Below, one piece after another: positions 2,217 to 45,138 of a DNA stretch of 64,000 nt; position 1 is the first letter of the stretch; each line of letters begins with the position of its first letter. Source of the DNA: a phage; the NCBI GenBank assembly GCA_014435945.1, contig GCA_014435945.1_4088.1; one strand, written 5' to 3'. The position numbers and the translations under genes were made by a program. Below the pieces are notes generated by a model. It was not told where the DNA came from and searched no databases. It saw only the letters and a program-made list of their open reading frames with translations.

Positions 2217-2269
2217 AATTCCCTCCTTTATTCATTATACTATATTTAATACAAATAAGAATGCCAGTA
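2217..2269 (-). promoter_or_regulatory. Intergenic cassette: TATAAT box + SD; 9-bp-stem hairpin (2261-2283) overlaps stop codon of upstream gene, followed by T-run
   Basis: ATGCCAGTA-cttga-TACTGGCAT then tcttatttgtatt on minus strand. Confidence 0.55.
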
Positions 2270-3466: not shown

Positions 3467-3537
3467 ATTTCCCTCCTTTATTCATTATACTATATTTAAT
3501 TCAAAAAGAAAAGCCAGTATCAAGTACTGGCATTATG
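3467..3537 (-). promoter_or_regulatory. Intergenic cassette: terminator hairpin + TATAAT + SD
   Basis: gccagtatcaagtactggc hairpin; conserved tatagtataatgaataaaggaggg. Confidence 0.5.
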
Positions 3538-4647: not shown

Positions 4648-4657
4648 ATTTCTCTCC

Positions 4658-5788
4658 TTAATTTAATAATGCCCCTGGCAAATCCACTTTGACGAATTGT
4701 GCATATGCTGAGGAATTTTGATCAAAGTTTGGTCCCAATCCATAAAATGAGCTAATGCCGTCTTCATTTGTGTATATGATATAAACGTTCTTTACATCAT
4801 TTCCGCATATAAATCGAATGTCTTTCGTTTGTGTTCCCGCTGGAACATTACGAAGGTTCACAACGCCATTACTTGCATTGTTATCAGCCGCCGCAATTGG
4901 TAATTGATTTTGACCATATTGACCACGCATATTTTTTGCATCTAAACCAAACACAGTATCTGATACCGCACCAACTTTCAAAAATGAACCAAAACTATTA
5001 TTGAATGACTTTGGAAATGTACCACTATAAACACTTCTCCCATCTGATAATACCGCTGAACTGAATTTCCCGCTATTCGATATGGCAAATTCATTGTAAG
5101 GAAGTGTACCCATTTTGGTATATACAGAATATGAATTAGTGGAAGTATTATCAATAATCTTATTACCATTATATCCAATACCATACTGGTATCCGTCTGC
5201 ATCTTGAACTATACACAAAGGACCACTTGGGGTTTGTGTCAACGAAACAACACGTTCAACTTGTATATCACCAAATGTATTTCTTCGCCATGTTCTATCT
5301 ATTATAGTACTAGTATTACCCAAAGATAATGCCACACTATATAATAGATTGTTTTCAGTAAAAATGGCAACATAATATGCGTGGTTAATAACTTGCTTCA
5401 TCCCAGCATCAATAACTTCCTGTGGAATATGATCAGTAACATCCAACCAATCAAGGTTAGATGATGCAATATCTGGAGTACTGAATTTGTCAAATCTAGT
5501 TGAGCCACAAACTAGCACTCTATCATCATTTGTCAAAGCCACTGTGCTAGTCTGCATATTAGAACTGAATGATTTAACATTACTAATGTTAGACTTGTAC
5601 CAACCCTTATCAGCAGCACCCACCGTGAATCCGGTTCCCATTGATCCACTTGTACTTGTACCATAAGCCCACATCTCACCACTATATGTTAGTGCCATAC
5701 AGTGGCTTCCATTTGCTTGGAAATCCTTTATACCAGTGGGAGCAACCACTGTATTCCCATAATCAAACATTCTAACAAAAGGTAACAT
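4658..5788 (-). CDS. RCC1-like beta-propeller repeat protein, array member
   Basis: Start moved to conserved ATG (MLPFVRMFDYGN) at 5788; track start 5803 adds 5 aa. Confidence 0.72.
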   Translation of the reverse strand: MLPFVRMFDYGNTVVAPTGIKDFQANGSHCMALTYSGEMWAYGTSTSGSMGTGFTVGAADKGWYKSNISNVKSFSSNMQTSTVALTNDDRVLVCGSTRFDKFSTPDIASSNLDWLDVTDHIPQEVIDAGMKQVINHAYYVAIFTENNLLYSVALSLGNTSTIIDRTWRRNTFGDIQVERVVSLTQTPSGPLCIVQDADGYQYGIGYNGNKIIDNTSTNSYSVYTKMGTLPYNEFAISNSGKFSSAVLSDGRSVYSGTFPKSFNNSFGSFLKVGAVSDTVFGLDAKNMRGQYGQNQLPIAAADNNASNGVVNLRNVPAGTQTKDIRFICGNDVKNVYIIYTNEDGISSFYGLGPNFDQNSSAYAQFVKVDLPGALLN

Positions 5789-5863
5789 AACTAAAATCTC
5801 CATATAATAATTATAATGTATTTACAAAAAAATACCAGTACGTATTTCAGTACTGGTATAATG
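5789..5863 (-). promoter_or_regulatory. Intergenic cassette with 8-bp-stem hairpin ACCAGTAC..GTACTGGT
   Basis: Hairpin about 5833-5856 plus AT-rich tataat-like tract. Confidence 0.45.
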
Positions 5864-7045
5864 TTATGGTAAAATAATAGCTTGTAACGAACTCATACCC
5901 AATGTTGGGACACTCGCCTGTGGTGCTGGTGAATTCAATTTTGGTGATGAAACCGCATATGACATTCCTGAACCCAAATCTGGATCAAAAACTACAGCAC
6001 AATAATTCCCACTATATATAAGTCCATTCTTGTATCCTTGTGCACTTTGAATGCATTTCGTGAACGTACCAATATCTGTAGTGGCATTTATTAAGTTCCT
6101 CCCACGATAACCGCAGGTGTATATGAAATTATCATCGCCTATGTACATACTAGAATCCCCAGAAGAACTACATAGATACGACATATAAGCACGCATGTTT
6201 TTAGGAGCAACTGACAATGTACCTGCATAGAATTTATTATTCGAACCCGTAATATCACCATCACCCAATGCACCAAAACTTCCCCAGCCAGTACCGTAAT
6301 ATCTCTTATCACTCAAAAATATAATACAGTTGTTATTACACATCTTGATTTGATATATCAATGAAGGATCAACCCCAGGGAATGATTCAGTGAATGTTAG
6401 AACAGCCGGATCAGTACTAGCATTACATTGATGATATGTATTAGTACCAGCGGACAAGATTGTTCCATTAGCTAACAGAATTCTCGCAGTACCAGTACCA
6501 GCAGTACAAGCAACTGCACTTCCTGCACTTCCGGTGTATATTTGTCTGAAAGTAAAGAAACCAACAGTTTTACTTCCCTGCCCACTCCAACCAGTATTAT
6601 CAACTCCACACGCCCATACTGAACCATCTTGCATGATCATCATTACACCAAAGCGTTCTATTGAAATATAAACAATCTTCGTTGTATCAACTGCACTAAA
6701 TCTAGAAGTTATATCAGTCCATACCTTAACACTTACCGCCGTCGCACTGGAAGTAGGATCTTCACCAGCTATCATTATCCTCCCATTGTTAGTAAGATAC
6801 ATTGTCTGACTATAACCAGTACTACAAAACTTAACACTATTAGTCTCTGGAACTTTTAACCACTCGTTGTAACGTGTTACGTTAGTGTTATTACCTAACT
6901 GATAATAGTTATTCATCCCAGATACATATAACACACCATCCTTTATTAAACTATAAGTCGCACTATAGTCACTACAGGTATAACGTGTACCCACAGGTCG
7001 CTCAACGACGTTCCCATAATCAAACATTCTAACAAAAGGTAACAT
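5864..7045 (-). CDS. RCC1-like beta-propeller repeat protein, array member
   Basis: 393 aa; N-term MLPFVRMFDYGN. Confidence 0.75.
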   Translation of the reverse strand: MLPFVRMFDYGNVVERPVGTRYTCSDYSATYSLIKDGVLYVSGMNNYYQLGNNTNVTRYNEWLKVPETNSVKFCSTGYSQTMYLTNNGRIMIAGEDPTSSATAVSVKVWTDITSRFSAVDTTKIVYISIERFGVMMIMQDGSVWACGVDNTGWSGQGSKTVGFFTFRQIYTGSAGSAVACTAGTGTARILLANGTILSAGTNTYHQCNASTDPAVLTFTESFPGVDPSLIYQIKMCNNNCIIFLSDKRYYGTGWGSFGALGDGDITGSNNKFYAGTLSVAPKNMRAYMSYLCSSSGDSSMYIGDDNFIYTCGYRGRNLINATTDIGTFTKCIQSAQGYKNGLIYSGNYCAVVFDPDLGSGMSYAVSSPKLNSPAPQASVPTLGMSSLQAIILP

Positions 7046-7118
7046 AATAAAATCTCCGTAATTAAATTATATAGTATTTACAAAAAATACCAGTACATAT
7101 TTCAGTACTGACCTATTA
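7046..7118 (-). promoter_or_regulatory. Intergenic cassette with hairpin
   Basis: ccagtacatatttcagtactg hairpin; AT-rich promoter-like tract. Confidence 0.45.
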
Positions 7119-8240
7119 TTAAAAGGGCAACGGTAACTCAGTAAAAGTACTTACGTCCGGTAAACCATACATTGAATTAGCATCACCACAGTAATACCAC
7201 TTCGTAGAATCATGTACCACCGATAAACGCTGTGCACATAACACTTCCTGTATGTCATTAAACACCATCGGGACTAACTCATATGTATCCGCAAATGAAG
7301 ATACACCACCACTCGCATGAAAAGTATTCGTCCCAGCATAAAATAACTGATTAGTGTTCTTACCCACAGCAAATGTCATCAATATCCCATCATTCGCCCA
7401 TAAAGAAGAAAACTTATCAACACTACCAGAAAGCTCTGTGTAAGTACTCGTAATGGCACTCGCAGCCGCCGCATTACCCATCTGTTTATTCAAGTTCTGT
7501 CCAGCAATAAAATATCTCGTGCGTGCACTAGAATCAGTATATAATAACCCAGTGTTCGTAGTCATCATTCCAATGTCCTTAATCGTCATACCAGTCTGTG
7601 AATAACTTAGATACGAAGTTAAATTAACATTATTACCCAACGAACCGTTATCACTCATACCACAACGATGTAATATACCACTTGTATCAACGTAGATTGT
7701 ACTAACTAAACTCGTATACAACTCTTGTACATTATTCGCAATAAACACAGCAGTCGCCTTATTACTAACCCCACCAAATGATAGGTTATTATCAAATCCC
7801 TTAGCGTATAATTGATTATTAGTAGTCAATAATCCAATCGTGAAATAAGACATTTTCATATCCCTTACTGTACTCAAATCTACTGCCCCAAATTGGTGCG
7901 TAACATCTGTCCATGTGAAAATCTGTGCACTACCAACACCACCCGTTTCAAACCATTTGTCACCACAGTACAATATGCGATTACCCTTAGTAAAGATAAC
8001 TGTTACCAATCCACTACCACACGCAAACTTTACATCACTTCTAACCTTCGTCCAATTAAGTACATAGGTAGTGGTGTTATTACCTATACCTAACTTGCCA
8101 TAACGGTTATAACCACGCACCCACAAATCACCACTCTTAGTAATTAATAGTAATGCGTCTCCTGTACTTATTATTCGAAATCCCGAACTAGGATCAGGTG
8201 TAATATTTCCATAATCAAACAATCTAACAAAAGGTAACAT
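7119..8240 (-). CDS. RCC1-like beta-propeller repeat protein, array member
   Basis: 373 aa; N-term MLPFVRLFDYGN; 9-nt gap to upstream gene. Confidence 0.75.
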   Translation of the reverse strand: MLPFVRLFDYGNITPDPSSGFRIISTGDALLLITKSGDLWVRGYNRYGKLGIGNNTTTYVLNWTKVRSDVKFACGSGLVTVIFTKGNRILYCGDKWFETGGVGSAQIFTWTDVTHQFGAVDLSTVRDMKMSYFTIGLLTTNNQLYAKGFDNNLSFGGVSNKATAVFIANNVQELYTSLVSTIYVDTSGILHRCGMSDNGSLGNNVNLTSYLSYSQTGMTIKDIGMMTTNTGLLYTDSSARTRYFIAGQNLNKQMGNAAAASAITSTYTELSGSVDKFSSLWANDGILMTFAVGKNTNQLFYAGTNTFHASGGVSSFADTYELVPMVFNDIQEVLCAQRLSVVHDSTKWYYCGDANSMYGLPDVSTFTELPLPF

Positions 8241-8249
8241 GATTTTCTC

Positions 8250-9443
8250 CTATGATTGCCATAACTGCGTTGGCATTAATGTTAATGTTTTAATTACGGA
8301 AGTACCATCCGGTAAGTTACCACCTGAACCGTTAAAGCCCCCACATGCATATAATTTATAATCTTTAGTTATAATTATTGTTCTGGACCAGTCTTTGGAT
8401 GCCATAAGAACATTGTCATATCCACCCTGTATCGCACTTAAAGAAAACGCCCCCCACGAAGTAATTACTGTTGTATTTCCCGTCCCTTCTTGACCATATG
8501 TATTGATGCCTGCACTCCTGACATATGATGGGTATTGAGCCATAGGTGCACCAATTGTTGAGTTACCCATATTACTAGGACACAGGAAACCATCACTAAT
8601 ATTCACTATAACCTGTGAATTCTGAACTGTAGTTAATTGGTTTGTAGTTGAAGTAGTACCATTCCCAGCTTGTCCAGAATTGTTTCTACCACTCCAGTAC
8701 ACCCTACCGGCAGTGAACCACCAGGTAACATCATAAGTAGCACTTATATAATCGACGTTGGATCGTATTAATTTATTAGTAAAAACGTATGAGCTAGTCC
8801 CACCACCACTTTCACCAAAGTTATCCTTACCACAAAACCATGCTTCTTTATTTGTTTTGAGATAGTGCGTACCCTGTAATGAACACGCCAATTGAGAAAC
8901 TTCACCCATACCAGTAACAACTGTTAGTACTGGAATGGAATTTTGGTTACCTGTTCCACATTCGGCATTTGCATTTTTACCACAAACAACTACTCTTCCA
9001 TCGTGTAGTAATATTCTAGTACTTTCACCTATATGTACACTCTTGATTAAATTAGCGTGTACATTTATTTTGTTAAATGCGGCAGTAACATCAGTCCATG
9101 TTCTAAAATAACCATTAACTGGAGTTGCATCTCCATAATCGGGGAATGCTACAGTATTCCCTGTGAAATATATTCTATTATCCAAGTCAATCATCAATGA
9201 GCCATGAACGCCTAACCAAAAGGCTGCACAGTGCGTTGCCAGTACTGTAAAAGTAGAAACTGTCGATTGATTCCCTAGACCTAATTGGCTCAAGTTATTA
9301 CCACCATAACCGTATAGTGTATTCGTGGGCTTATGTAGATACATAGCATTAGTATAATGTTGCTGTAAAACATCAGTGAACTCAACTGGATCAGGAATAG
9401 GCAGTTTATTCCCGTATTTAACCATTCTTGCAAAAGGTAACAT
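8250..9443 (-). CDS. RCC1-like beta-propeller repeat protein, array member
   Basis: 397 aa; N-term MLPFARMVKYGN. Confidence 0.75.
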   Translation of the reverse strand: MLPFARMVKYGNKLPIPDPVEFTDVLQQHYTNAMYLHKPTNTLYGYGGNNLSQLGLGNQSTVSTFTVLATHCAAFWLGVHGSLMIDLDNRIYFTGNTVAFPDYGDATPVNGYFRTWTDVTAAFNKINVHANLIKSVHIGESTRILLHDGRVVVCGKNANAECGTGNQNSIPVLTVVTGMGEVSQLACSLQGTHYLKTNKEAWFCGKDNFGESGGGTSSYVFTNKLIRSNVDYISATYDVTWWFTAGRVYWSGRNNSGQAGNGTTSTTNQLTTVQNSQVIVNISDGFLCPSNMGNSTIGAPMAQYPSYVRSAGINTYGQEGTGNTTVITSWGAFSLSAIQGGYDNVLMASKDWSRTIIITKDYKLYACGGFNGSGGNLPDGTSVIKTLTLMPTQLWQS

Positions 9444-9513
9444 ATTTCCCTCCTTTATTCATTATACTATATTTAATCAAAAATAAATGCCAGTACACAG
9501 TACTGGCATAATA
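9444..9513 (-). promoter_or_regulatory. Intergenic cassette: hairpin + TATAAT + SD
   Basis: gccagtacacagtactggc; tatagtataatgaataaaggaggg. Confidence 0.5.
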
Positions 9514-10692
9514 TTATCGGTTAAATTTAAAATCTGTTATGTGTGTCCATGTATGATTTAATGGTGTACTCATTGGTGTAAAGCCAGCAGGGTCTGACAA
9601 AGCTGTACCACGTGCGTACATAAATTGATTGCCAGTACAATCCATTATAGCATAAGAACGTTTTGCTGTGCCACATTTGAACCCAACTGCACTACTTGGG
9701 GTCGGTAATACTTCAAATGTAGGTGCATTTGAACTACCACCCCCATCTTTTGTTCCAGCTATGTACAGAACTCCATTAGTATCAATGATTAAGTTAGTCC
9801 AATATACTTGTTCTCGTCCAGCAAAAAAATATGTTAAATCACCTGGTACAAATGGTAACGTTCCTTTATATATTGTGGTATTAACATCCACTGGTGCACC
9901 AGCTACACCCCATGAACTCATATAGTTTCTCCCACTTGCGTAGAATGTAGTTCCTTTACCGTAAAGTATTAATGTTGCTAGACTTGTTCGCATTGCATTA
10001 TATTCAAACTCAGGATCATCAGTAGCGTCCTTAAAAATCTGTGTCCATGTTGTTATATTGCCAGTAGTTGTAACACCCATTTGATAATAATAATTATCAC
10101 CAGTAGCATAGAATTCTTTAGGGCCAGTTTGTACAATTGCATTCCTATTAGTTAACCAAAAATCTAATGTATTAGTCTTGATCTTGGTTGGTGTGTAATT
10201 CGCCACGGTATTTCCTTTTCCGAAATAACCATTAGCGTTATTTCCATGACCCCATAAATCACCATTAGTTGTGCGTAGGAATAATGTACCAATATTGAAT
10301 CCAACTTTTTCTATAGTACTTATGTCAATACCAACAGTCGTGTACTTCGTTGTAAAATCTTGAAAAGTACTCCAATAATTAGATGAACCATTAAACATGG
10401 TTTGTTTACCAGTGTACTTCACTTTATTATCTTTAGTGATAAGTAATGTCCCCCACACTGACGCGAACATCAACTTAACATTTTCCATAACAAAGTATGG
10501 CTTACCGTATGCTGACGCGGTAGAGTTCAAACCTAATAGTTGTCCATTATTACTACAACCCCATACTTCGCCGTTATCCAAAAGCATCAACATAGTAGGT
10601 TTGCCAGATGATACATCCAAAAAGAAATCTTTTGGTGTTGGTACACCAGGTGTAATATTTCCATAATCAAACATTCTAACAAAAGGTAACAT
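9514..10692 (-). CDS. RCC1-like beta-propeller repeat protein, array member
   Basis: 392 aa; N-term MLPFVRMFDYGN. Confidence 0.75.
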   Translation of the reverse strand: MLPFVRMFDYGNITPGVPTPKDFFLDVSSGKPTMLMLLDNGEVWGCSNNGQLLGLNSTASAYGKPYFVMENVKLMFASVWGTLLITKDNKVKYTGKQTMFNGSSNYWSTFQDFTTKYTTVGIDISTIEKVGFNIGTLFLRTTNGDLWGHGNNANGYFGKGNTVANYTPTKIKTNTLDFWLTNRNAIVQTGPKEFYATGDNYYYQMGVTTTGNITTWTQIFKDATDDPEFEYNAMRTSLATLILYGKGTTFYASGRNYMSSWGVAGAPVDVNTTIYKGTLPFVPGDLTYFFAGREQVYWTNLIIDTNGVLYIAGTKDGGGSSNAPTFEVLPTPSSAVGFKCGTAKRSYAIMDCTGNQFMYARGTALSDPAGFTPMSTPLNHTWTHITDFKFNR

Positions 10693-10764
10693 ATTTCCCT
10701 CCTTTATTCATTATACTATATTTAATCAAAAATAAAAGCCAGTACTCTGTACTGGCATATTAAT
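10693..10764 (-). promoter_or_regulatory. Intergenic cassette: hairpin + TATAAT + SD
   Basis: gccagtactctgtactggc; conserved cassette. Confidence 0.5.
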
Positions 10765-11913
10765 TCATTGTATAAATGACATATCTACTTCTGTATAATT
10801 AAGAACGTTCTGTCCAGAAATACCACCCATTACTACTATTGCAATGCCACAATAATATAATTTTCCAGTATCCGTAAGTATAAGTGAACCAGATGGACTG
10901 CGTACCAAATTACACGAAGTATTAAACGAAGTATATGAAGGAGTATAGGAGTACTGATTATTATTATTACCAACACCTAATTGCCCAAACCCATTCGATC
11001 CAGAAGCATATAGAACTTCATCTGCTTTGACAATATGTGATGCCATGTTACCAACACAAGTATATAGAGTATAAACTCCTGAACTCAATAATGTCGGAGT
11101 TTTATATTGTATATCTGTAGATGTAGAAGTACCACCTGTACCAAATTCGTTCCCATATTGTGCACCGAACTGTTTACCACAAGCGTACAAATTATTATCC
11201 GATTTGATAAAAAATGTACTCTGATAACTTACATTAAAATCTATAACATCCGAAGAAATCATCGTCACCCCAGTAATAGAAGTTTGATTACCCGTGCCCA
11301 ACTGGTAGTAATAGTTAAAACCACAACCCCATAAAGTATTATCTTCTCGCAAATAAATGTTACCAACTGCCTTTTTAACCGAAGTTATAGTATCTACTCT
11401 TTTGAATGTGTTAAAAGAATTAATGTTTGTGCCATCACCAAATGATGATATGTTCGATATATTGTTAGCTCCACAACAATACAATGTACCATCGTTTGTT
11501 ATCAAATTCACCTTCATATCATAAAAACTACTCATGTATTTTATATCAGAAACATTAATACCACTTGATGTTATCCACGTAGTACAGTCCGTCCACAAAG
11601 TTTTTCTATCAGTTACACCAGTGAATGCCTTCGTGTTACCAGTGATAAAAACTTTTCCAGTACCTTTCTCTTCATACAATTGACAATCACTACTGTTATC
11701 TTCCAATAGAACTCGTTTAACATTCTCCGCACAAAGAATAAATTTACTCGATGCTACACCTGTACCAGTACCCCAATTCGTCGCAGAAGATGCATACAAC
11801 TTATCAGTATAAGTATCATGAAGATACATAGAATCACTGGAATATATTTTAAAACGCCCTTCTTTCTCAGGTATAATATTCCCATAATCAAACATTCTAA
11901 CAAAAGGTAACAT
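10765..11913 (-). CDS. RCC1-like beta-propeller repeat protein, first array member
   Basis: Start moved to conserved ATG at 11913 (MLPFVRMFDYGN); SD AGGAGG. Confidence 0.72.
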   Translation of the reverse strand: MLPFVRMFDYGNIIPEKEGRFKIYSSDSMYLHDTYTDKLYASSATNWGTGTGVASSKFILCAENVKRVLLEDNSSDCQLYEEKGTGKVFITGNTKAFTGVTDRKTLWTDCTTWITSSGINVSDIKYMSSFYDMKVNLITNDGTLYCCGANNISNISSFGDGTNINSFNTFKRVDTITSVKKAVGNIYLREDNTLWGCGFNYYYQLGTGNQTSITGVTMISSDVIDFNVSYQSTFFIKSDNNLYACGKQFGAQYGNEFGTGGTSTSTDIQYKTPTLLSSGVYTLYTCVGNMASHIVKADEVLYASGSNGFGQLGVGNNNNQYSYTPSYTSFNTSCNLVRSPSGSLILTDTGKLYYCGIAIVVMGGISGQNVLNYTEVDMSFIQ

Positions 11914-11961
11914 ATTTCCTCCTTTATTCATTATATCATATTTACCCCATAAACAAAACCC

Positions 11962-11990
11962 TTGACATCCTTTCAGTACTGGTGTACTAT
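11962..11990 (+). promoter_or_regulatory. sigma70-like promoter for family A operon (TTGACA-N17-TACTAT)
   Basis: TTGACA 11962-11967, TACTAT 11985-11990, then SD AAGGAG and ATG 12016; divergent from RCC1 array. Confidence 0.55.
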
Positions 11991-12015
11991 AGAAGGAATA
12001 TAAGGAGAACTGTAC

Positions 12016-12243
12016 ATGACAACTACACTTAAGTACTACCTCAATACTCTAAATGAACTAGAGTACGCGAAGTTTCTCGCGGATAGTTCGTGGCTAATTG
12101 AGCTAAAAACACATAACAGTACTGGATGTAACCTTATGCTGAACAATGCACTTGATACCCTTGTAGTGAGTATTTTACACAGCAACATCTGCGGGGATAG
12201 CAATAAACAATTATCAAAAATCTTAGTACTGGTAGCTCTATGA
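12016..12243 (+). CDS. small protein, paralog family A
   Basis: 75 aa; SD AAGGAG; family-like N-term KYYLNTL. Confidence 0.6.
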   Translation: MTTTLKYYLNTLNELEYAKFLADSSWLIELKTHNSTGCNLMLNNALDTLVVSILHSNICGDSNKQLSKILVLVAL

Positions 12244-12452
12244 ACACTATGAACATTGAACAGTACTACATTGATGCACTACCAACAAAAGGTCTACGAG
12301 AAAGCCTACTGTATACACAAAATAATTATATAAACCTCAAACATTGTCCTAAACTCTTGAACTCGTACAGGAATAATAAAATAAGAAATGCTGTACAAGG
12401 GGTAGAAAGTATGCAATACTATTACATCCTAACCCTTTTAATCGAACACTAA
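12240..12452 (+). CDS. small protein, paralog family A
   Basis: 70 aa; overlaps upstream stop; QYYIDALP. Confidence 0.6.
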   Translation: MNTMNIEQYYIDALPTKGLRESLLYTQNNYINLKHCPKLLNSYRNNKIRNAVQGVESMQYYYILTLLIEH

Positions 12453-12453
12453 T

Positions 12454-12639
12454 ATGTATAAAGAATTCTACTGTAGTAAGCTGCACAAACAATACAGAGA
12501 TTCATTTCCCAATGAACCTATGGATATGAATAGTCCCTTTTATAAATTTGACTTCAGACTGGAGACACGTTATGCAATAGAACATCAATTTCCTGAAACT
12601 AAGTACTTATCTATCATGAACCTCATCTTTAAGTTCTAA
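12454..12639 (+). CDS. small protein, paralog family A
   Basis: 61 aa; MYKEFY N-term. Confidence 0.6.
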   Translation: MYKEFYCSKLHKQYRDSFPNEPMDMNSPFYKFDFRLETRYAIEHQFPETKYLSIMNLIFKF

Positions 12640-12650
12640 AAGAGTACTAT

Positions 12651-12863
12651 ATGAAAACTATGAACATACACCAGTACTACTTAGATATTCTCCCTAAAGA
12701 TGTACAGTTCATCCTTAAACAAGAATACAGTACTTTAAAAAACCTTAAAAGAACCGCACCGAATGTATTAATCCTGCACCAAGAAAATGTAGTTGATAAT
12801 ATTCTACAAGGTGTACCAGGGACCGAGTACTTTAACATAATAAGGCTAATTACATTACCATGA
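12651..12863 (+). CDS. small protein, paralog family A
   Basis: 70 aa; QYYLDILP; close paralog of 12240. Confidence 0.6.
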   Translation: MKTMNIHQYYLDILPKDVQFILKQEYSTLKNLKRTAPNVLILHQENVVDNILQGVPGTEYFNIIRLITLP

Positions 12864-13045
12864 ATCATATATTATACTATTACCAAAATCTATCCGACAG
12901 GGACAAGTACACCCACAACTCCAATGTATGGTACTACAAACGCGGTAGTATAAGAGACAAACAACATTACTTCTGTATTGCTATAAAAGAAGCACTAACA
13001 ACTAAGTACACGTACAGAGCAGTACTGAAACTTATTGATATGTAA
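12860..13045 (+). CDS. small protein, paralog family A
   Basis: 61 aa; C-term YRAVLKLIDM. Confidence 0.6.
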   Translation: MNHILYYYQNLSDRDKYTHNSNVWYYKRGSIRDKQHYFCIAIKEALTTKYTYRAVLKLIDM

Positions 13046-13055
13046 AGAGAATACT

Positions 13056-13238
13056 ATGAGCATTGAATTGTACTTAAGTAAATTACAGCCTGGCGATAGA
13101 TTCATCTACAATAAGTTCGAATTCAACTACAAGAACGGGAGCAACAAATATCGTCGAGGATACCTATATACAAGCACAAGAGATGCACAAAACGAAAAGT
13201 ACACATACAGAGAAGTACTTAAACTAATCTCTATTTGA
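13056..13238 (+). CDS. small protein, paralog family A
   Basis: Start moved to ATG 13056 (track start is TTG); C-term YREVLKLISI. Confidence 0.58.
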   Translation: MSIELYLSKLQPGDRFIYNKFEFNYKNGSNKYRRGYLYTSTRDAQNEKYTYREVLKLISI

Positions 13239-13246
13239 GGTAATAT

Positions 13247-13432
13247 ATGAACACATTTGAGTACTATACAAATAAACTATCTATGCCTGAAAGATCTCAT
13301 CTCTATGTGTGGAGAAATGCGTATAAAAGCGGCAATAAACTTATACAAAGAAATTCCCTTACAGTGTGTACAAATTTAATTAAAGCAGAGTACCGCACAT
13401 ATATTGAAGTACTCAAACTGATAGCAATATAA
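13247..13432 (+). CDS. small protein, paralog family A
   Basis: 61 aa; MNTFEYYTNKL. Confidence 0.6.
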   Translation: MNTFEYYTNKLSMPERSHLYVWRNAYKSGNKLIQRNSLTVCTNLIKAEYRTYIEVLKLIAI

Positions 13433-13440
13433 GGTACTCT

Positions 13441-13620
13441 ATGCAAGAATTCTATATCTATAACCTCCAGCACAAAGATAGATACAACTATAATAAATTC
13501 CAAAGGTACTACACAGTCGGGAACAAAAGAGATAAAAAACGTTATCTACTCTCGTGTACAGTAGAAGCACAAAACGAAAAGTACAGGTACAGAGAAGTAC
13601 TTAAACTAATCTCAATCTAA
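13441..13620 (+). CDS. small protein, paralog family A (59 aa, below track cutoff)
   Basis: Hand-translated MQEFYIYNL...YREVLKLISI; fills gap in array. Confidence 0.55.
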   Translation: MQEFYIYNLQHKDRYNYNKFQRYYTVGNKRDKKRYLLSCTVEAQNEKYRYREVLKLISI

Positions 13621-13627
13621 GGTAGAC

Positions 13628-13816
13628 ATGAACACTTTTGAGTACTACTTCAATAAACTAAACCACATAGAACAAAGTATGCACAACTCATTTATTCAGC
13701 ACCATCAATCATCTGCATCTGGAATTAAAAATATATCGATTGAGATTATAACTACCCGTGTACTGTCATCTGAACGTTATATGTATATTGATGTACTGAA
13801 ACTCATCTCTATGTAA
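13628..13816 (+). CDS. small protein, paralog family A
   Basis: 62 aa; MNTFEYYFNKL. Confidence 0.6.
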   Translation: MNTFEYYFNKLNHIEQSMHNSFIQHHQSSASGIKNISIEIITTRVLSSERYMYIDVLKLISM

Positions 13817-13824
13817 GGAATAAT

Positions 13825-14004
13825 ATGCAAGAATACTATATAGAACACATAAACATTAAAGACCGTTTCATGTACGACACCTTCGTGAAGTACTACAACC
13901 TGGCAACTAACAGTACTAAAAATATTAATCTCAATAGCTGCATTCATCACGCACTAACAAAAGATAATCCCTTCAGGGAAATCCTCGCTCTCGCATCTGT
14001 ATAA
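13825..14004 (+). CDS. small protein, paralog family A (59 aa, below track cutoff)
   Basis: Hand-translated MQEYYIEHI...; fills gap. Confidence 0.55.
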   Translation: MQEYYIEHINIKDRFMYDTFVKYYNLATNSTKNINLNSCIHHALTKDNPFREILALASV

Positions 14005-14014
14005 AGGAAACCAA

Positions 14015-14674
14015 ATGAAACTTAATGCACACAGCAAACAATACCTTAAGCACTTTAAGTACCTCAACAGTATTCAAGCAGAATCTTTTACATCTGCATA
14101 TACGTATCACCCAAATGTACTAAAGAAACGAAATAAAAAGAAAAAATCCAGAAATGTTCTCGTATCTAAGAACCTCAAATCGTACTTGAAGAAAAATAAT
14201 ATAGCTCTTGCTTTTATTAATATCTATAATACTGATTTAAAAGTATTGAGTACTAATACCAGCACAAAAGCACTAAAGAATGCATCTATCTATATACACA
14301 TGGATAATATCCCGTGTACTATAATTCTATCTTTCGGGAATGTATACTTCTTCGGGAATTGTAATAGCACCCATGATATCAGTACTGCACAATTCCAAAT
14401 CGGAGATATGTACTGCATGGGTTCAGAAAAAATACACGATAACATGCACTTCTTCCAAAAGCAACGTACTAACGAAACTGATACAGTACTGCAATTCCTC
14501 AAAGAACTACAAAACAAAGAATTAACACCAGAAGAAGAATTCATGTACAGTACTGTAATCGATAATCCAGAACTCTATAAAAACGCGTACAAACTAACAA
14601 AACATGTACAGGAACTTATCAGTACTGATAAGAAATTTCATAACCTCATTACGTATATTACAAACTATGTATAA
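14015..14674 (+). CDS. hypothetical protein (219 aa) inserted in family A array
   Basis: ORF with lysine-rich stretch KKRNKKKKSRN; no family A signature. Confidence 0.55.
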   Translation: MKLNAHSKQYLKHFKYLNSIQAESFTSAYTYHPNVLKKRNKKKKSRNVLVSKNLKSYLKKNNIALAFINIYNTDLKVLSTNTSTKALKNASIYIHMDNIPCTIILSFGNVYFFGNCNSTHDISTAQFQIGDMYCMGSEKIHDNMHFFQKQRTNETDTVLQFLKELQNKELTPEEEFMYSTVIDNPELYKNAYKLTKHVQELISTDKKFHNLITYITNYV

Positions 14675-14849
14675 AGAATACTACAAAGATAAAATCCCAA
14701 TGCATCTACAACACCATATACCAAACGTTGCATTGGGTATCAAAGATCACACAAAGATAATGTTCCAACAATGTACTAAGTACACGCTCATATACGATGA
14801 TAATCCATATATGCTGTACTACGTAGTAATGCTAACATTCAGGTACTAA
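14667..14849 (+). CDS. small protein, paralog family A
   Basis: Start moved to ATG 14667 (MYKEYYKDKIP), overlapping upstream stop. Confidence 0.58.
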   Translation: MYKEYYKDKIPMHLQHHIPNVALGIKDHTKIMFQQCTKYTLIYDDNPYMLYYVVMLTFRY

Positions 14850-14850
14850 T

Positions 14851-15030
14851 ATGCACAAATATAAAGAATTCTACCTCTCGTACCTTAATTCCGATATAGT
14901 AACATCCAATACATTCAGTACTAAAATTATCTATAATGAAGTAATGAAAGAATGTATTAAAGGTGCTATTAACCCTAAAGATACGTATGACTTGTACTAT
15001 GCAGTACTAACCCTTGTTTTCACGAAATAA
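14851..15030 (+). CDS. small protein, paralog family A (59 aa)
   Basis: Hand-translated MHKYKEFYLSYL... Confidence 0.55.
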   Translation: MHKYKEFYLSYLNSDIVTSNTFSTKIIYNEVMKECIKGAINPKDTYDLYYAVLTLVFTK

Positions 15031-15038
15031 CACATAAT

Positions 15039-15230
15039 ATGAATAACCACAAAGAATACTACATAGAGAAACTCCCAATGTATCTACAACACCTTGTACC
15101 AACAGAACCATTGCGTATAGAAAAAGACTACGAAAAAGACTATTTCATTAAGTGCACTAAATCCTCGATAGATATTGAGGACTATAATAGAGTACTGTAT
15201 CACATCCTTTTACTAATATATAAGTACTAA
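15039..15230 (+). CDS. small protein, paralog family A
   Basis: 63 aa; MNNHKEYYIEKLP. Confidence 0.6.
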   Translation: MNNHKEYYIEKLPMYLQHLVPTEPLRIEKDYEKDYFIKCTKSSIDIEDYNRVLYHILLLIYKY

Positions 15231-15240
15231 AGAGAACAAT

Positions 15241-15429
15241 ATGAATAACCACAAAGAATACTACACACAATTTCTCCCCAGCATTTTTGAACACTACGCC
15301 AGATATAAAGTCCCCCTGGATAACGATTTGGCAGTACTGGGATTCAATAATTGCATAGAACGCAGTATAGAAAATAGTAGTAGCTATGACCAATTATATA
15401 ACACTATCCTACTTATATTCAGGTACTAA
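15241..15429 (+). CDS. small protein, paralog family A
   Basis: 62 aa; MNNHKEYYTQFLP. Confidence 0.6.
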   Translation: MNNHKEYYTQFLPSIFEHYARYKVPLDNDLAVLGFNNCIERSIENSSSYDQLYNTILLIFRY

Positions 15430-15430
15430 T

Positions 15431-15619
15431 ATGCATAAAGAATACTACACAAAATATTTCCCAATGTACCTCAGTACTAATCTATTAGATAAACCTCGCG
15501 GTATCAATGCACAAAACGATAAAGTGTACTTTACTATGTGCACTAAAGCATGTATACTAGATTTTGATAGCTATCATCGAGTACTATACCACACTCTGTA
15601 CCTCGCGTTCGTGTACTAA
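15431..15619 (+). CDS. small protein, paralog family A
   Basis: Start moved to ATG 15431 (MHKEYYTKYFP). Confidence 0.58.
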   Translation: MHKEYYTKYFPMYLSTNLLDKPRGINAQNDKVYFTMCTKACILDFDSYHRVLYHTLYLAFVY

Positions 15620-15629
15620 AGAGGCCAAT

Positions 15630-15836
15630 ATGAACGAACAGAAAGAATTTTACACCAAATACCTCAGCAACGAAGAACAATTGTTTCTAAGGAGTGTATC
15701 ACCTTTAAGTTTAGATACACCACACGCCAGACATTGCTTTAATAATTGTATACGTAGTACTCTAGAAGCTTTAGAAAACAATAACAAAAAGATTCAGTAC
15801 TCAGGTGTAATAGGACTAATATTCTTCTATGAATAA
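15630..15836 (+). CDS. small protein, paralog family A
   Basis: Start moved to ATG 15630 (MNEQKEFYTKYL). Confidence 0.58.
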   Translation: MNEQKEFYTKYLSNEEQLFLRSVSPLSLDTPHARHCFNNCIRSTLEALENNNKKIQYSGVIGLIFFYE

Positions 15837-16008
15837 CTATAAAGAATTCTACATAAGCCATCTGGATATAAACTCCCAAATGCTTATACCACTAAAACCA
15901 ATAGATTTCAAGGATAAGAAAAATACCCAACAATTTATTGACCATACTGACTGTGCGGTGAACCAAAATTATATGTACTACATTCTCGCCCTAATATACA
16001 GGTACTAA
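15829..16008 (+). CDS. small protein, paralog family A (59 aa)
   Basis: Hand-translated MNNYKEFYISHL...LIYRY. Confidence 0.55.
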   Translation: MNNYKEFYISHLDINSQMLIPLKPIDFKDKKNTQQFIDHTDCAVNQNYMYYILALIYRY

Positions 16009-16009
16009 T

Positions 16010-16195
16010 ATGCATAGAGAATACTACACACAATTTGTTAAAGGGAACTACAAACACGCCGTCCCCGTAAACCCCTTAAATTCTAATGACCCAAGTACTA
16101 TATTCTTGTTCCATGACGCAATACGTACAGTACTCAATACTAAAGATGAACAGGTGCAGTACGTATTCTTACTTTTACTTATATACAGACACTAA
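16010..16195 (+). CDS. small protein, paralog family A
   Basis: 61 aa; MHREYYTQF. Confidence 0.6.
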   Translation: MHREYYTQFVKGNYKHAVPVNPLNSNDPSTIFLFHDAIRTVLNTKDEQVQYVFLLLLIYRH

Positions 16196-16200
16196 CTAAT

Positions 16201-16410
16201 ATGAATAATGAACATAAAGAATTCTATTCCAAACACCTCAGCCAATCAGAACAAATGTTTCTAAGGACTACACCACCTTTAAGTACTAATACATATTTCG
16301 GCAGAGTATGCTACAATAATTGTATTCAAATGACTTTAAACGCAAACGCCAATGGTAACAGTACTAACCTGTACTCAGGCATCATAGGTATACTATTTCT
16401 ATATGAATAA
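16201..16410 (+). CDS. small protein, paralog family A
   Basis: 69 aa; close paralog of 15630. Confidence 0.6.
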   Translation: MNNEHKEFYSKHLSQSEQMFLRTTPPLSTNTYFGRVCYNNCIQMTLNANANGNSTNLYSGIIGILFLYE

Positions 16411-16585
16411 AGAACATAAAGACTTCTATATAAGAAAACTAACATTCGTCCCCGTAAGAATATACAAAGAATGCGACCCAAGATTATACCTATGGCACTT
16501 CAATGAGTGCATAAAAGATTCTATATACCCTAAGAACTATAAAGAACAATTGATCTCAGTACTAACACTAGTACTATCATATTAA
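16403..16585 (+). CDS. small protein, paralog family A
   Basis: 60 aa; MNKEHKDFYIRKL. Confidence 0.6.
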   Translation: MNKEHKDFYIRKLTFVPVRIYKECDPRLYLWHFNECIKDSIYPKNYKEQLISVLTLVLSY

Positions 16586-16598
16586 TAGAGATAATACT

Positions 16599-16781
16599 AT
16601 GTATAAAGACTTCTATATAAGTAAACTAAAAGAAAACGAACAAGCATGGGTTAACAATTTAATCCCCTTGGCAATGACTCAATACGAATTTAATATGTGT
16701 ACAAAGATTGTTTTAACTACTAATGATATCTCTAATACGTACTACTTCCTAGTAAGAGTACTATATGGTACTTTGAAATAA
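16599..16781 (+). CDS. small protein, paralog family A
   Basis: 60 aa; MYKDFYISKL. Confidence 0.6.
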   Translation: MYKDFYISKLKENEQAWVNNLIPLAMTQYEFNMCTKIVLTTNDISNTYYFLVRVLYGTLK

Positions 16782-16792
16782 TAAGGTATACT

Positions 16793-16999
16793 ATGCAGAA
16801 CATAAAAAATTATAAAGAGTACTATATAAGTAAACTACCACCGACTGACCAAGCATGGATTAGATCTATAATAGTACTTGCATTTAATAGATATGCATTT
16901 AACAGATGTACCGAGATTGCTATAGACCCTTATAATATTAAAGAGAATGTACAGCATAATCAGTACTACTATATGTTAATGCTTATATATAGGAAGTAA
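16793..16999 (+). CDS. small protein, paralog family A (last member)
   Basis: 68 aa; KEYYISKLPPTDQAW. Confidence 0.6.
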   Translation: MQNIKNYKEYYISKLPPTDQAWIRSIIVLAFNRYAFNRCTEIAIDPYNIKENVQHNQYYYMLMLIYRK

Positions 17000-17122
17000 T
17001 TCAACATATAGACAGGGGAAGCTCCGCAGGGAAAGCATTGGACAGGCTTTAACATATGTTATATATGTTAAAATTCAGCCTGGACAAATGCGATCACTAG
17101 GATTCTCCCCAGGCTAAACCCC

Positions 17123-17410
17123 GTAATCATATGTAGTCATAAGTAATCATATATAAACATTTAAGTAATCATTTATAATCACAGTAGTGATCAGTAGTGA
17201 GTACTAGAGTGTAATAGAGTGTAATAGAGTACAGGAATGTGCACGTTTAATCAAGAACGTAGCAGTACTGCCCCAAAAGTATTCAGTACTGAAGGTGTCG
17301 ATATGCCACTAAGTAGGCAGAGGAAGTCTGCCGTACTTTGTAGTTTCCAAGCTCCTTTTCCATTTTGCAAATTACATCAAATGTAATCAAAAGTAATCAC
17401 GCAATGATTA
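17123..17410. repeat. Cluster of short direct repeats (GTAATCA units; AGTGTAATAGAG x2; AGTAGTGA x2)
   Basis: Read directly; non-coding. Confidence 0.5.
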
Positions 17411-17676
17411 GTACTGAATTATTACTTTCACCTTAATTACAATTACCCTTTTACCCTTCGGGGTAAAATTCCATTACCCCTTGAGGCTCCAGCAAAAAGT
17501 TGGTTAGTACTCCATCCTAAATCTCGATCCTAAAAATTTTGGAGTACCTATGAAATAAAAGTTGGATCTTCGAAAGTTGAAATTTACGTTGGGACGTTTA
17601 TGATTTGTGGGATATAATGATGTTTGTAGTCGGGTAGTTCTCAAGAATATCAGTACTGAATGGTGAAAGAAAGTTA

Positions 17677-17704
17677 TTGACATTATGATTCAGTACTGTA
17701 TAAT
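17677..17704 (+). promoter_or_regulatory. Orphan sigma70-like promoter (TTGACA-N16-TATAAT) with no downstream ORF
   Basis: Downstream about 100 nt contains two CCUCCU tracts; candidate small RNA. Confidence 0.4.
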
Positions 17705-18105
17705 GTTCTACATAGAGAGATGAGTTGCTGCGAACAATTCATTTACTCTACCTCCTGTCGTGAGACAGTACAGAAAAGATAGTTCCTCCTATTGGTGGTG
17801 CATCTTTTTGAACCTCATATGAAAATCGTAATAACAGTACTGATATTAACAGAATGGTATTAGTACTGATTTTAATCTAAAGCATTATGCCACCAGCTTG
17901 TGCTGGTGGATTCCCTCTAACAGTATTCAGTACTACATGATGGTCTTCATCCTCCTAGGGTAACATAGTGAGGGCTATGATGGCAGTACTGAATACTCCT
18001 TTCACAAGATAGATCTATGGTATAGTACTGACGGATTTTGGGCGTAGTTACCCTGGGTGGATTTTGGACGTAGATATGTCTAGCCCTCCAGAAGTCTGGA
18101 AGTAA

Positions 18106-18222
18106 AGATGGCTATCCATCTAGACGGCTAAACGGCTAGATTTCTAGATGGCTGTATGGCTAGACGTTTGGACGGCTAAACGGCTAGATGGTTACACGTC
18201 TGGATGTATAGACGGCTAAATC
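18106..18222. repeat. Iteron-like direct repeats (ACGGCTAAACGGCTAGA / GGCTAGA units) followed by AT-rich tract
   Basis: gacggctaaacggctagat occurs twice, plus related tagatggct/tagacg units; candidate origin or packaging site. Confidence 0.5.
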
Positions 18223-19005
18223 AAAATTTTTATTTTGTTTTTTCCAATAGTTCCCCTACCGCGTGGGGATAGTTTCCCCGCAGTATCTGGAGTTAGATTT
18301 TTCTGAATCTGGAATCATTATCCCCGTTTTAGCCTGGTATGTCAACCGCCTGGATGAATATTTTTAAAAAATAATCTAGTACTGAATTTTGGGCGTAACT
18401 ATGCACCCGGTGGGCTTGAGTCTTTCTCGACTTGATGGAACTATTATACAGTACTGGAAAAATAAAGCAATACCCTGGAAGCAAAAAAGTTTTAATTAAT
18501 TTGCTTGCTATCCTGGGCCGGACTATGGTACTATATTTCAGTACTGAGAAAGTGCGTTTACCTGCTAGGGTGCGGGAGTGTATCCTTTTTAAATTTACTG
18601 AATTTTGGGCGTAATTCCGCACCCCCAGGGGTATCCGCTTTCTCGCGTCTATGTAGTAATTATACGCTTTTTCGGTGCTGAGTCAATAGCTAAAAACAAA
18701 ATAATTGAAAATAATTTAACGCGTTTAAACGGCCCGTAAAGCCCTGGTTAGCTGGTGGCGGTGCAAATGTATAGCTTAGGTGTATTAATGCGTTAGAATG
18801 CGATTGAGGACGTTTTACGGGGTATAGTACTGATTCAGTACTGAAAGATTGTTCTCCCTGGATTGTTCCAGTACTCCTATATAGAAAGAAAACTATTTTA
18901 AAAGTATTTGTAGAAAGTACTTGCAAAGTATTGGGAAAGGTGTAGAATGTTTTACATCGAGACGGGGGATACGCTCCCGACTCACTTTTAAAAGAGATTA
19001 AAACG

Positions 19006-19461: not shown

Positions 19462-19701
19462 ATGGCTAAATCAAAAATGTTCTTAGGTCACAAAAACAAA
19501 ACTCAATGGAATGTAAGCCTTTGGATTAATAACGACGAATCATTATACCGGTTGGCCCAGGACTTTATTGCCGCTAACACTAATCGTAATGATGCGGCCC
19601 GTCATATGATGCTATTTTTAGAACAGACTGGACAAGATAAAACGCCGGACGGCTTTAAGTATAGCACTACTGCGATCCGTGCGGCGATGGTTGGAATGTA
19701 A
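19462..19701 (+). CDS. hypothetical protein; paralog of 21854-22093
   Basis: Start moved to ATG 19462 (MAKSKMF); shared C-term TPDGFKYSTTAIRAAMVGM. Confidence 0.6.
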   Translation: MAKSKMFLGHKNKTQWNVSLWINNDESLYRLAQDFIAANTNRNDAARHMMLFLEQTGQDKTPDGFKYSTTAIRAAMVGM

Positions 19702-20369: not shown

Positions 20370-20654
20370 GCAGTTTACAAATCTTTACAATTGCCAGTAT
20401 TGACTTATTTTGTCAGTACTGGCATAATGTATTCATTGGCAGATAAGCCGTAGCCCATAGGGTGCGGAAGTGTATCTATAGAAAAAGTAGTTTAGTACAG
20501 TTACAATTGTGCACCCGGTGGGTTAGCTGTTGTCATGGGGTATATTATACCAGTACTGGATAGTGCTGTCAATACTTTTTTTACTATTCAGTACTGAAAA
20601 ACTATTTGATAAAAAGTACTTGCAAACTATGTTTAAAGGCGTATAATGTTTTAC

Positions 20655-20730
20655 ATCAGGACGGGGAACGAAATAAGTAACTTCCCGTTAAGTAGCCCAG
20701 GAGTAAGGCACACGAAAAACTCCCCTGATA
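20655..20730 (+). ncRNA. Conserved ~75-nt structured leader element, copy 1 of 3
   Basis: ggacggggaacg...aagtag...cgaaaaactcccctgat recurs at 24012-24090 and 31788-31870. Confidence 0.35.
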
Positions 20731-20797
20731 AAATAGTTTGACAATTGTTTTTAAAAGCGTATAATACTTACATAAACTACTGAATGAGGGTTACAAA

Positions 20798-21853: not shown

Positions 21854-22093
21854 ATGGCTAGTACTAAAACTTACAACGGGCACAAAAACAAAACTCATTG
21901 GAATGTTTCCTTATGGATTAATAACGGTGAGTCATTGTATCGGCTTGCTCAAAGTTGCATCGCACAAAGTAGAACTAAAGATATTGCTGCGGAATGTATG
22001 TACCGCAGATTAAAAGCCAACGGTACTACTACAACGCCGGACGGATTCAAGTATAGCACTACGGCGATCCGTGCTGCAATGGTTGGAATGTAA
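21854..22093 (+). CDS. hypothetical protein; paralog of 19462-19701
   Basis: 79 aa; HKNKTHWNVSLWINNGESLYRLAQ shared. Confidence 0.6.
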   Translation: MASTKTYNGHKNKTHWNVSLWINNGESLYRLAQSCIAQSRTKDIAAECMYRRLKANGTTTTPDGFKYSTTAIRAAMVGM

Positions 22094-27825: not shown

Positions 27826-27969
27826 ATGAATCCAACAGGCTTAAATTATAAAAGTTGTTCGGCGTTTACGAAAGCAAATAAAGCGAATGCACGTAAAGCG
27901 AAAGTACAGGAATACATCAAGCAAGGCATGACGCGAAAGGCGGCGATTCTAAAAGCTAAAAATAAATGA
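27826..27969 (+). CDS. small basic protein (47 aa)
   Basis: Starts directly after upstream stop; Lys/Ala-rich. Confidence 0.4.
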   Translation: MNPTGLNYKSCSAFTKANKANARKAKVQEYIKQGMTRKAAILKAKNK

Positions 27970-28000
27970 AAAAAGTGGTTGACTCCGGTCAGCCATTTTG
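27970..28000 (+). terminator. Terminator-like hairpin (A-run, GTGGTTGAC..GTCAGCCAT, T-run) at start of repeat module
   Basis: Same module at 31633, 34899 and 37657. Confidence 0.45.
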
Positions 28001-28179
28001 CTATTATATATTCATTGAGAGATAGCTCACTAGCCCACAGGGTGCATAAGTGTATCTATTATATAAGTATTGAGTACTGAAAACTATTTTTAAAAAGTAC
28101 TTGCAAACTATCTCAATAAGCGTATAATGTTTTACATCGCAAGGGGAAATGGTTTCCCCTGGTAATAAGGAAACGAATC

Positions 28180-39083: not shown

Positions 39084-39179
39084 AAATAAAAGGGATTGGA
39101 CTATGGCAAAATGCGTAGGGGGCTAAAGGGCGGGTAACCTTAGCGACTTCGATAAAGGGGTATTACTTATAAAATGTTA

Positions 39180-45137: not shown

Positions 45138-45138
45138 T

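Follow-up and report, generated by a model that had tools for sequence, protein, structure and literature searches.

A stretch of phage DNA of 64,000 nucleotides (NCBI GenBank assembly GCA_014435945.1, contig GCA_014435945.1_4088.1), referred to here as the window, carries on its plus strand, at positions 12016-16999, an array of 22 back-to-back small genes and one gene encoding a 219-aa protein (23 open reading frames, ORFs). Judging by its sequence, the window is part of an Asteriusvirus (121Q/PBECO4/G17-like) jumbo coliphage, bases 12000-17000 being 97.2% identical to phage BF17 and matching 34 Escherichia/Salmonella phage records. The genes of the array were shown to be coding sequences under purifying selection and to stem from ancient duplications, and each paralog was shown to be maintained as an ortholog across the genus. 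Sequence comparison led us to accept 21 of the small genes as one superfamily, called here family A, while the kinship of the first gene of the array, A01, is doubtful.

Orthologous arrays were found with 22 intact members in BF17, 21 in SHEFM2K, 20 in slurp01, 19 in SP27, 17 in G17, and about 16 in the divergent JNE01, and no pseudogene copy was observed in seven genomes. When the phage arrays were compared to that of the window, the pooled ratio of nonsynonymous to synonymous substitution rates (dN/dS) was 0.28-0.39, and the values of individual genes ranged from 0.00 (A07) to 0.75 (A06), none being >1; constraint was relaxed in A06 and A22 (0.7-0.75). Substitutions were in excess at the third codon position (228, 165, and 365 at positions 1, 2, and 3, respectively; p = 1e-18). 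Copy number (16-22) and gene order differed between phages, and orthologs were conserved at 80-100%, versus a paralog identity of about 21% (median 21%, maximum 54%). These results corroborate the original prediction, made from the sequence of the window, that the array consists of real protein-coding paralogs. The same prediction named, as the finding that would speak against it, a conservation of the shared motifs independent of the reading frame, of the kind left by nucleotide repeats in non-coding DNA. Such conservation was looked for and was not seen for family A: Tandem Repeats Finder detected no DNA repeat with the period of the genes, and the family profile matched the ORF frame only, the next best match in the six frames of the window having an E-value of 0.2. 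A frame-independent AGTACT motif is, however, superimposed on the array. No RNA family was found in the window with Rfam, and no tRNA with ARAGORN.

BLASTP at E < 1e-3, together with leave-group-out hidden Markov models, divided the small genes into four groups: G1 (A03 and A11-A22; 13 members), G2 (A05-A10; 6 members), G3 (A02 and A04; 2 members), and G4 (A01). Profile-profile comparisons of these groups were performed with hhalign on alignments enriched with orthologs. They linked G1 to G2 (E = 1e-5, probability 82%), G1 to G3 nearly over their full length (about 60 columns, E = 2.5e-4), and G2 to G3 (E = 3e-3), and left A01 unlinked to the other groups (E 0.02-0.3). A mid-helix F..C[TI] motif is common to G1 and G2, and in JNE01 one G2 member, whose N-terminus reads 'EHLEYY', looks intermediate. 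The hhalign links, the shared motif, and the JNE01 member argue for a single superfamily of 21 members.

A comparison of 133 distinct members, taken from seven phages and from protein databases, showed Y8 to be invariant and columns E6, [YF]7, L12, F36, C39, [TI]40, [LI]44, [YL]53, [IV]56, L57, L59, and I60 to be conserved. Columns 7, 12, 36, 39, 40, 44, 53, 56, 57, 59, and 60 are hydrophobic or aromatic and follow a helical i, i+3/4 spacing, the other positions being highly variable. Both signatures that had been noticed in the window, (K)E[YF]Y...L at the N-terminus and Y..[IV]L.LI at the C-terminus, are real features of the family.

The family had been described as unmatched to anything named, and no named family was indeed found: Pfam, NCBIfam, and PDB sequence searches with all members or with the family profile gave nothing significant, and PADLOC (defence systems) gave isolated matches only, to single members, with E-values of 0.002-0.03. 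This description nevertheless has to be qualified, as the 13 members of G1 correspond to PHROG 11711, for which no function is annotated, and many members have been deposited as 'hypothetical protein'. These deposited Asteriusvirus proteins (for example 121Q gp249-265, PBECO4 p282, and phAPEC6 gp542c/gp545c) are the products of the same genes as those of the array. The 13 members gave E-values of 1e-12 to 1e-27 with the PHROG profile. A03, A13, A16, A21, and A22 matched PHROG 11711 over profile positions of about 1-62 (E 5e-12 to 3e-27), and the SHEFM2K annotation attributes it to nine array genes. It takes in subgroup G1 only, G2, G3, and A01 remaining without a PHROG, and A01, A02, A07, and A08 gave no PHROG match at E <= 0.01. 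No paper in which the array is treated as a family of paralogs was found in the literature on Asteriusvirus (including 121Q and PBECO4) and on the DNA motifs of these phages.

The family profile retrieved 54 clusters among 5.8 billion proteins and 32 representatives (50% identity) among 1.84 billion proteins, and the matches in both sets were 41-84 aa long and recognisably of the same family. A tblastn search with the most divergent member returned Escherichia/Salmonella Asteriusvirus records only, and a scan of IMG/VR with the G2 alignment returned a single contig, of 348,532 bp. In the collections searched, family A is restricted to Asteriusvirus phages of Escherichia/Salmonella.

Structure prediction of the monomers, also recommended as a check, gave confident four-helix models for both proteins submitted to AlphaFold2 (AF2), A13 and A08, which were modelled from independent G1 and G2 alignments, respectively. 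A13 reached a mean predicted local distance difference test score (pLDDT) of 90.6, with helices at residues 4-10, 14-17, 30-45, and 49-60, and A08, modelled from a G2-only alignment, a pLDDT of 92.4, with helices at residues 2-7, 11-26, 29-43, and 46-58. Both models are all-helical; the G1 model has a short helix 2, after which comes a loop containing proline. Foldseek against BFVD returned family members only, and no PDB match was found. The grand average of hydropathy (GRAVY) was between -0.07 and -1.16 in 21 of the 22 members, and no hydrophobic segment of transmembrane length was found in any of them; these two observations speak against membrane or holin-like proteins. The hydrophobic C-terminal stretch spans about 12 residues and was modelled as the helix 49-60 within the compact monomer. 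The proteins are also tyrosine-rich, with up to 9 tyrosines in about 60 residues. Family A is thereby confidently predicted to adopt a four-helix mini-domain without a structural match, and its proteins should be soluble, as judged from their GRAVY values.

All 23 plus-strand ORFs of the original prediction were recovered at their coordinates. Its estimate of about 22 paralogs of 59-90 aa was right as to the 22 genes, but the proteins are 59-75 aa long and the kinship of A01 was not demonstrated. The upper size had been inflated by three ORFs of 81, 77, and 90 aa whose in-frame upstream start codons lie within the preceding gene; choosing instead the ATG in register with the other members gives proteins of 60, 62, and 68 aa. 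The close packing of the genes and the overlapping stop and start codons that had been reported were likewise observed, with spacings from -8 to +13 nt and five gene overlaps. From A01 to A22, the successive spacings are -4, 1, 11, -4, 10, 8, 8, 7, 8, 10, -8, 1, 8, 10, 1, 10, -8, 1, 5, -8, 13, and 11 nt. A Shine-Dalgarno (SD)-like sequence precedes 19 of the 23 starts, and the SD of the next gene is often formed by the C-terminal codons or the stop codon of the previous one (...AGG TAC TAA, ...TAA GG).

The array opens with A01 (12016-12243, 75 aa), the doubtful member that forms G4, whose orthologs are 90-98% identical at the nucleotide level and whose dN/dS is 0.50. It is followed by the two G3 genes, A02 (12240-12452) and A04 (12651-12863), each of 70 aa (67 aa from the ATG at 12249 and at 12660, respectively) and 38% identical to each other, which flank the G1 gene A03 (12454-12639, 61 aa; PHROG 11711, E = 2e-15); A04 is missing from SHEFM2K and SP27. 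The G2 block comprises A05 (12860-13045, 61 aa), which is basic with an isoelectric point (pI) of 9.4, A06 (13056-13238, 60 aa), the start of which was refined from a TTG at 13035 to the ATG at 13056, A07 (13247-13432, 61 aa), the top cross-match of the G1 profile (E = 0.0014), the AF2-modelled A08 (13441-13620, 59 aa), A09 (13628-13816, 62 aa), and A10 (13825-14004, 59 aa).

The 219-aa gene comes next, and the remaining genes all belong to G1. A11 (14667-14849, 60 aa, start refined) shares 8 nt with the 219-aa gene and is followed by A12 (14851-15030, 59 aa) and by the AF2-modelled A13 (15039-15230, 63 aa), which gave the strongest match to PHROG 11711 (E = 3e-27). A14 (15241-15429, 62 aa) and A15 (15431-15619, 62 aa, start refined) are under strong constraint (dN/dS 0.04 for both). 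A16 (15630-15836, 68 aa, start refined) has its ortholog at array position 3 in four other phages, and its nearest paralog is A19 (16201-16410, 69 aa; 54% identity). Between them lie A17 (15829-16008, 59 aa), the orthologs of which are just about 80% identical at the nucleotide level, and A18 (16010-16195, 61 aa). A20 (16403-16585, 60 aa) precedes A21 (16599-16781, 60 aa; PHROG 11711, E = 8e-15), which had an ortholog in BF17 alone among five compared phages, and A22 (16793-16999, 68 aa; PHROG 11711, E = 3e-19) is the final gene of the array.

Upstream of the first gene, a consensus scan detected a sigma70-type promoter-like site on the plus strand at 11962-11990 (TTGACA, 17 nt, TACTAT; 10 of 12 positions), with the octamer CAGTACTG inside its spacer at 11974-11981. 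Both hexamers are kept in seven Asteriusvirus genomes, JNE01 having TACAAT. A strong SD sequence, TAAGGAG, can be read at 12001-12007 on the same strand ahead of the first gene and is also kept across phages. No convincing promoter or terminator was found inside the array by the consensus scan, and a single upstream promoter for the whole array, as proposed originally, is plausible.

The position of the array in the genome was analyzed by comparison with G17, whose linear record has ends identical over 20,668 bp and for which Korf et al. reported, from coverage, a terminal redundancy of about 20 kb (PMC6563267). By blastn, G17 position 370,817 (= 20,668) corresponds to window position 17,312, and G17 position 1 to window position 39,140. 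Since positions ~17312 and ~39140 are homologous to the repeat boundaries of G17, the window probably spans the whole terminal-repeat unit between two small-gene arrays, the boundaries being placed here by homology to G17. The repeat-equivalent region, toward which the array is transcribed, starts about 313 bp beyond the end of the array, and the spacer mapped by blastn between the array and the equivalent of the inner repeat boundary covers 17000-17312; a weak terminator-like hairpin lies at 17316-17332. The repeat-equivalent region itself (17,312-39,140) is full of small plus-strand genes and consensus sigma70 promoters.

The reading that we favour, and to which we give slightly less than an even chance, combines early expression by the host RNA polymerase, coupled translation, and a non-structural role in the interaction with the host, the diversity of the paralogs reflecting different specificities. 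The host sigma70 RNA polymerase would transcribe the operon early in infection from the predicted promoter at 11962-11990, and translation would be coupled from gene to gene, since neighbouring genes have overlapping stop and start codons or are separated by 1-13 nt, and the SD of a gene is often provided by the C-terminal codons of the one before it. The products would be non-structural effectors that bind host (or phage) macromolecules and act in host takeover or counter-defence, and their diverged surfaces on a common scaffold would provide a repertoire of specificities. By analogy with other phages, the position of the array as the last unit before the terminal repeat, beside small early-type genes, fits such a host-takeover role. 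In the related phage CBB, short ORFs with RpoD-like promoters make up a region that was read as early host-takeover genes (PMC5259590), and SPO1's host-takeover module consists of small, early, highly expressed genes in a terminal region (PMC6873191). Moreover, the family members gp542c and gp545c are absent from the virion mass-spectrometry table of phAPEC6, and no gp52x-gp548 member is found among its 62 virion proteins; this table does include the neighbouring RCC1-like proteins gp549 and gp551 ('DNA condensation protein').

Several points weigh against this proposal. The family is known here from its genes alone, the promoter is a consensus match only, and the array lies just outside, not within, the G17-defined terminal repeat. 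For proteins of 7 kDa, failure to appear in a virion proteome says little, and subunits of one assembly would account just as well for the tight translational coupling and the strictly conserved termini. We also considered, as a rather unlikely reading, that the array is a repertoire of mini-binders in which a tyrosine-rich four-helix scaffold carries hypervariable surfaces, each paralog neutralising a different host defence or strain-specific factor, so that array content would set the host range. If this were true, the flanks of the repeat, that is, family A and the unrelated family B described below, would be counter-defence 'accordion' loci, and the high density of AGTACT common to array and repeat would be the mark of an early domain under shared regulation.

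Alternatively, the paralogs may be subunits of one hetero-oligomeric or polymeric intracellular assembly (scaffold, compartment, or coat) that co-assemble through their conserved N- and C-terminal motifs. The genes form one operon in which stop and start codons overlap or adjoin, which points to coupled translation in roughly equimolar amounts; conservation is highest at the termini, the middle being variable, and all paralogs are retained across the genus. However, a copy number of 16-22, with some paralogs missing or relocated, is hard to reconcile with a fixed stoichiometry, and AF2 predicts compact monomers with confidence, in which the conserved residues occupy hydrophobic positions spaced as in a helix. 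We regard such an assembly as unlikely.

Less probable still is a role as packaged or DNA-associated proteins, acting in an inner body or in DNA condensation alongside the neighbouring RCC1-like virion proteins. The G2 proteins are basic (pI 9.4-9.7, net charge +5 to +7), the adjacent divergent RCC1-like gp549 and gp551 are virion proteins in phAPEC6, and an inner-body bubblegram of the phiKZ type was obtained for 121Q (PMC5646251). G1, though, consists mostly of near-neutral members, and the family is not among the proteins of the phAPEC6 virion table in spite of the detection there of a 4.7-kDa protein; in addition, the sigma70-like promoter of the array is unlike the late ATAAATA-type motif described for CBB (PMC5259590).

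An equally low likelihood was given to the idea that the array is dispensable duplicated filler with no specific per-copy function, kept mainly because a jumbo genome packaged by the headful has room, or a need, for extra DNA. Hua et al. proposed that the genome of 121Q expanded through tandem duplication (PMC5646251), copy number varies, and the relaxed constraint on A06 and A22 would also agree with filler. Nevertheless, the lack of any pseudogene copy in the seven genomes, the strong constraint on A14, A15, and A07, and the conservation of each ortholog in spite of the wide divergence of the paralogs all argue against it, as does the preservation of the architecture in the divergent JNE01.

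The octamer found in the promoter spacer of the array is the commonest 8-mer of the window: CAGTACTG, a palindrome often extended to TTCAGTACTGAA, occurs 61 times versus 0.83 expected, and is frequent in promoter spacers (TTGACA-N8/9-CAGTACTG-TATAAT). Its core AGTACT has 270 occurrences in the window, with densities of 8.2/kb in the family A array, 9.5/kb at 17.0-19.0 kb, 6.4/kb in the repeat-equivalent region, and 0.9/kb in family B, which represents 20-27 times the expectation from base composition in the array and the repeat-equivalent region and about 3 times in family B. Within the array, AGTACT is found in all three reading frames. Enrichment of the motifs was seen in G17, 121Q, and JNE01 too, and to a lesser degree in the Yersinia phage fHe-Yen9-04; no literature on CAGTACTG or AGTACT was found.

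The abundance of these palindromes, which are densest in the array and the repeat-equivalent region, together with proteins of about 60 aa and four helices, some of them basic and of the size of Cro- or Xis-like binders, could suggest that family A proteins are small DNA-binding regulators targeting them. This is very unlikely, as no sequence or structural match to a helix-turn-helix domain was obtained for the family members. Lastly, the explanation that the ORFs are not genes and owe their similarity to non-coding nucleotide repeats or to chance, to which the overlap of AGTACT with the conserved protein motifs, one in 6 of the 22 members and the other in 10, might lend some colour, is refuted by the dN/dS values below 1, the third-position excess, the ORFs intact in seven genomes, the profile matches confined to the ORF frame with no DNA tandem repeat, the confident AF2 models, and the persistence of the amino-acid motifs in the 16 and 12 members that lack AGTACT, which also led us to reject the protein motifs as a by-product of this DNA motif.

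The 219-aa gene embedded in the operon (14015-14674, plus strand) corresponds to PHROG 29152 (E = 3e-113). It had been described as an unrelated inserted gene. The protein is indeed unrelated to family A, the family profile giving no match to it, but the gene is not an incidental insertion, because its position is identical in every array examined, including that of the divergent JNE01. No Pfam or PDB match was found for this protein, its homologs occur in Asteriusvirus alone (64-98% identity), and four CAGTACTG sites lie within the gene.

Other features were observed on both sides of the array. Divergently from the promoter region of family A, an array of ten tandem RCC1-repeat genes encoding proteins of 369-398 aa occupies the minus strand at 1074-11931 (Pfam RCC1, RCC1_2, RLD); in the Yersinia phage fHe-Yen9-04, the RCC1-like array reaches to about 1.1 kb from the end of the linear record. 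Downstream, 17000-19000 is a gene-poor stretch of about 2 kb at the repeat boundary with nine CAGTACTG sites, several hairpins, and no Rfam match, and a perfect sigma70 consensus promoter (TTGACA-16-TATAAT) is located at 17677-17704; this stretch could hold terminus-related or regulatory signals. Further into the repeat-equivalent region, two paralogous proteins of about 78 aa, encoded on the plus strand at 19465-19698 and 21854-22090, match DUF7249 of Pfam (E = 1e-11 and 4e-13), and an 85-aa DksA/TraR-type C4 zinc-finger protein (PF01258, E = 4e-9), a possible modulator of the host RNA polymerase, is encoded at 29969-30226 on the plus strand among small early-type genes. Intergenic segments of 95-230 bp recur in this region at 79-95% identity (~20590-20783, 27957-28186, 31616-31804, and others); they were seen as secondary blastn matches against G17 and are probably repeated promoter/terminator cassettes.

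Beyond the other repeat boundary, about 100 bp past the window equivalent of G17 position 1, begins family B, which consists of about 30 overlapping or adjacent plus-strand genes encoding proteins of 65-94 aa with an 'LGTNYQE' motif, at 39238-45934 and 46908-47159. A relationship between families A and B was rejected, as the hhalign probability was below 2%.

Standard annotation had been expected to miss members of the array, and this was observed in public records, which list between 4 and 23 features at 12000-17000: 4 in Sharanji, 7 in CMSTMSU, 12 in BF17 (for 23 genes), 16 in G17, and 23 in SHEFM2K (PHANOTATE). Gene counts can therefore not be compared between Asteriusvirus genomes. About 83% of the predicted gene products of phAPEC6 are without known function, and in the other Asteriusvirus records examined most genes are labelled 'hypothetical protein'. 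Here, 22 such 'hypothetical' genes resolve into an ancient, selectively maintained family (A01 being doubtful) with a predicted fold that has no match. The array offers a compact target for host-takeover or anti-defence screens, with 22 natural scaffold variants of about 180 bp each, and a test case for the building of jumbo-phage genomes by tandem duplication.

Small, lineage-specific genes driven by early promoters are known from the pre-early (first-step-transfer) genes of T5, which cluster near the genome termini, and from the hyperplastic early regions of T4-type phages, which lie in plastic regions varying between close relatives. These clusters are mixtures of unrelated ORFans, whereas the array is a paralog family of 22 members. 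Tandem paralog arrays beside terminal repeats are found in large eukaryotic DNA viruses, as the MGF110, MGF360, and MGF505 families of African swine fever virus (ASFV) and the terminal host-range families and 'genomic accordions' of poxviruses. The array may be likened to them as a paralog array adjoining a terminal repeat, the content of which varies between isolates (16-22 members here), but this would be an analogy without homology, and the duplications of the array are ancient and not recent amplifications. With the RCC1-like family, it shares genome growth by tandem duplication (PMC5646251; PMC7247149). The RCC1-like proteins are, however, large beta-propeller repeat proteins present in virions, whereas family A has a different fold, is encoded on the opposite strand, and was not detected among virion proteins.

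In SPO1, the host-takeover module comprises about two dozen genes, most of them small, which lie at the genome terminus and have promoters of the host type and strong ribosome-binding sites (PMC6873191). The array appears to share with this type its 23 genes (59-219 aa), a conserved predicted promoter of the sigma70 type, the TAAGGAG sequence, and its position abutting the terminal repeat. In contrast, the SPO1 genes form several operons inside the repeat, and several have a shown toxicity or known targets, while the array is one operon of one family, located about 310 bp outside the repeat and known from its genes alone. The array and the SPO1 module are not similar in sequence, and to our knowledge the SPO1 host-takeover genes have not been described as paralogs of one another. 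Membership of the array in the terminal host-takeover type of SPO1 and T5 is not established, because it does not lie inside the repeat. By analogy, its closest functional counterparts would be these terminal host-takeover modules of SPO1 and T5, and its closest architectural counterparts the terminal multigene families of large eukaryotic DNA viruses.

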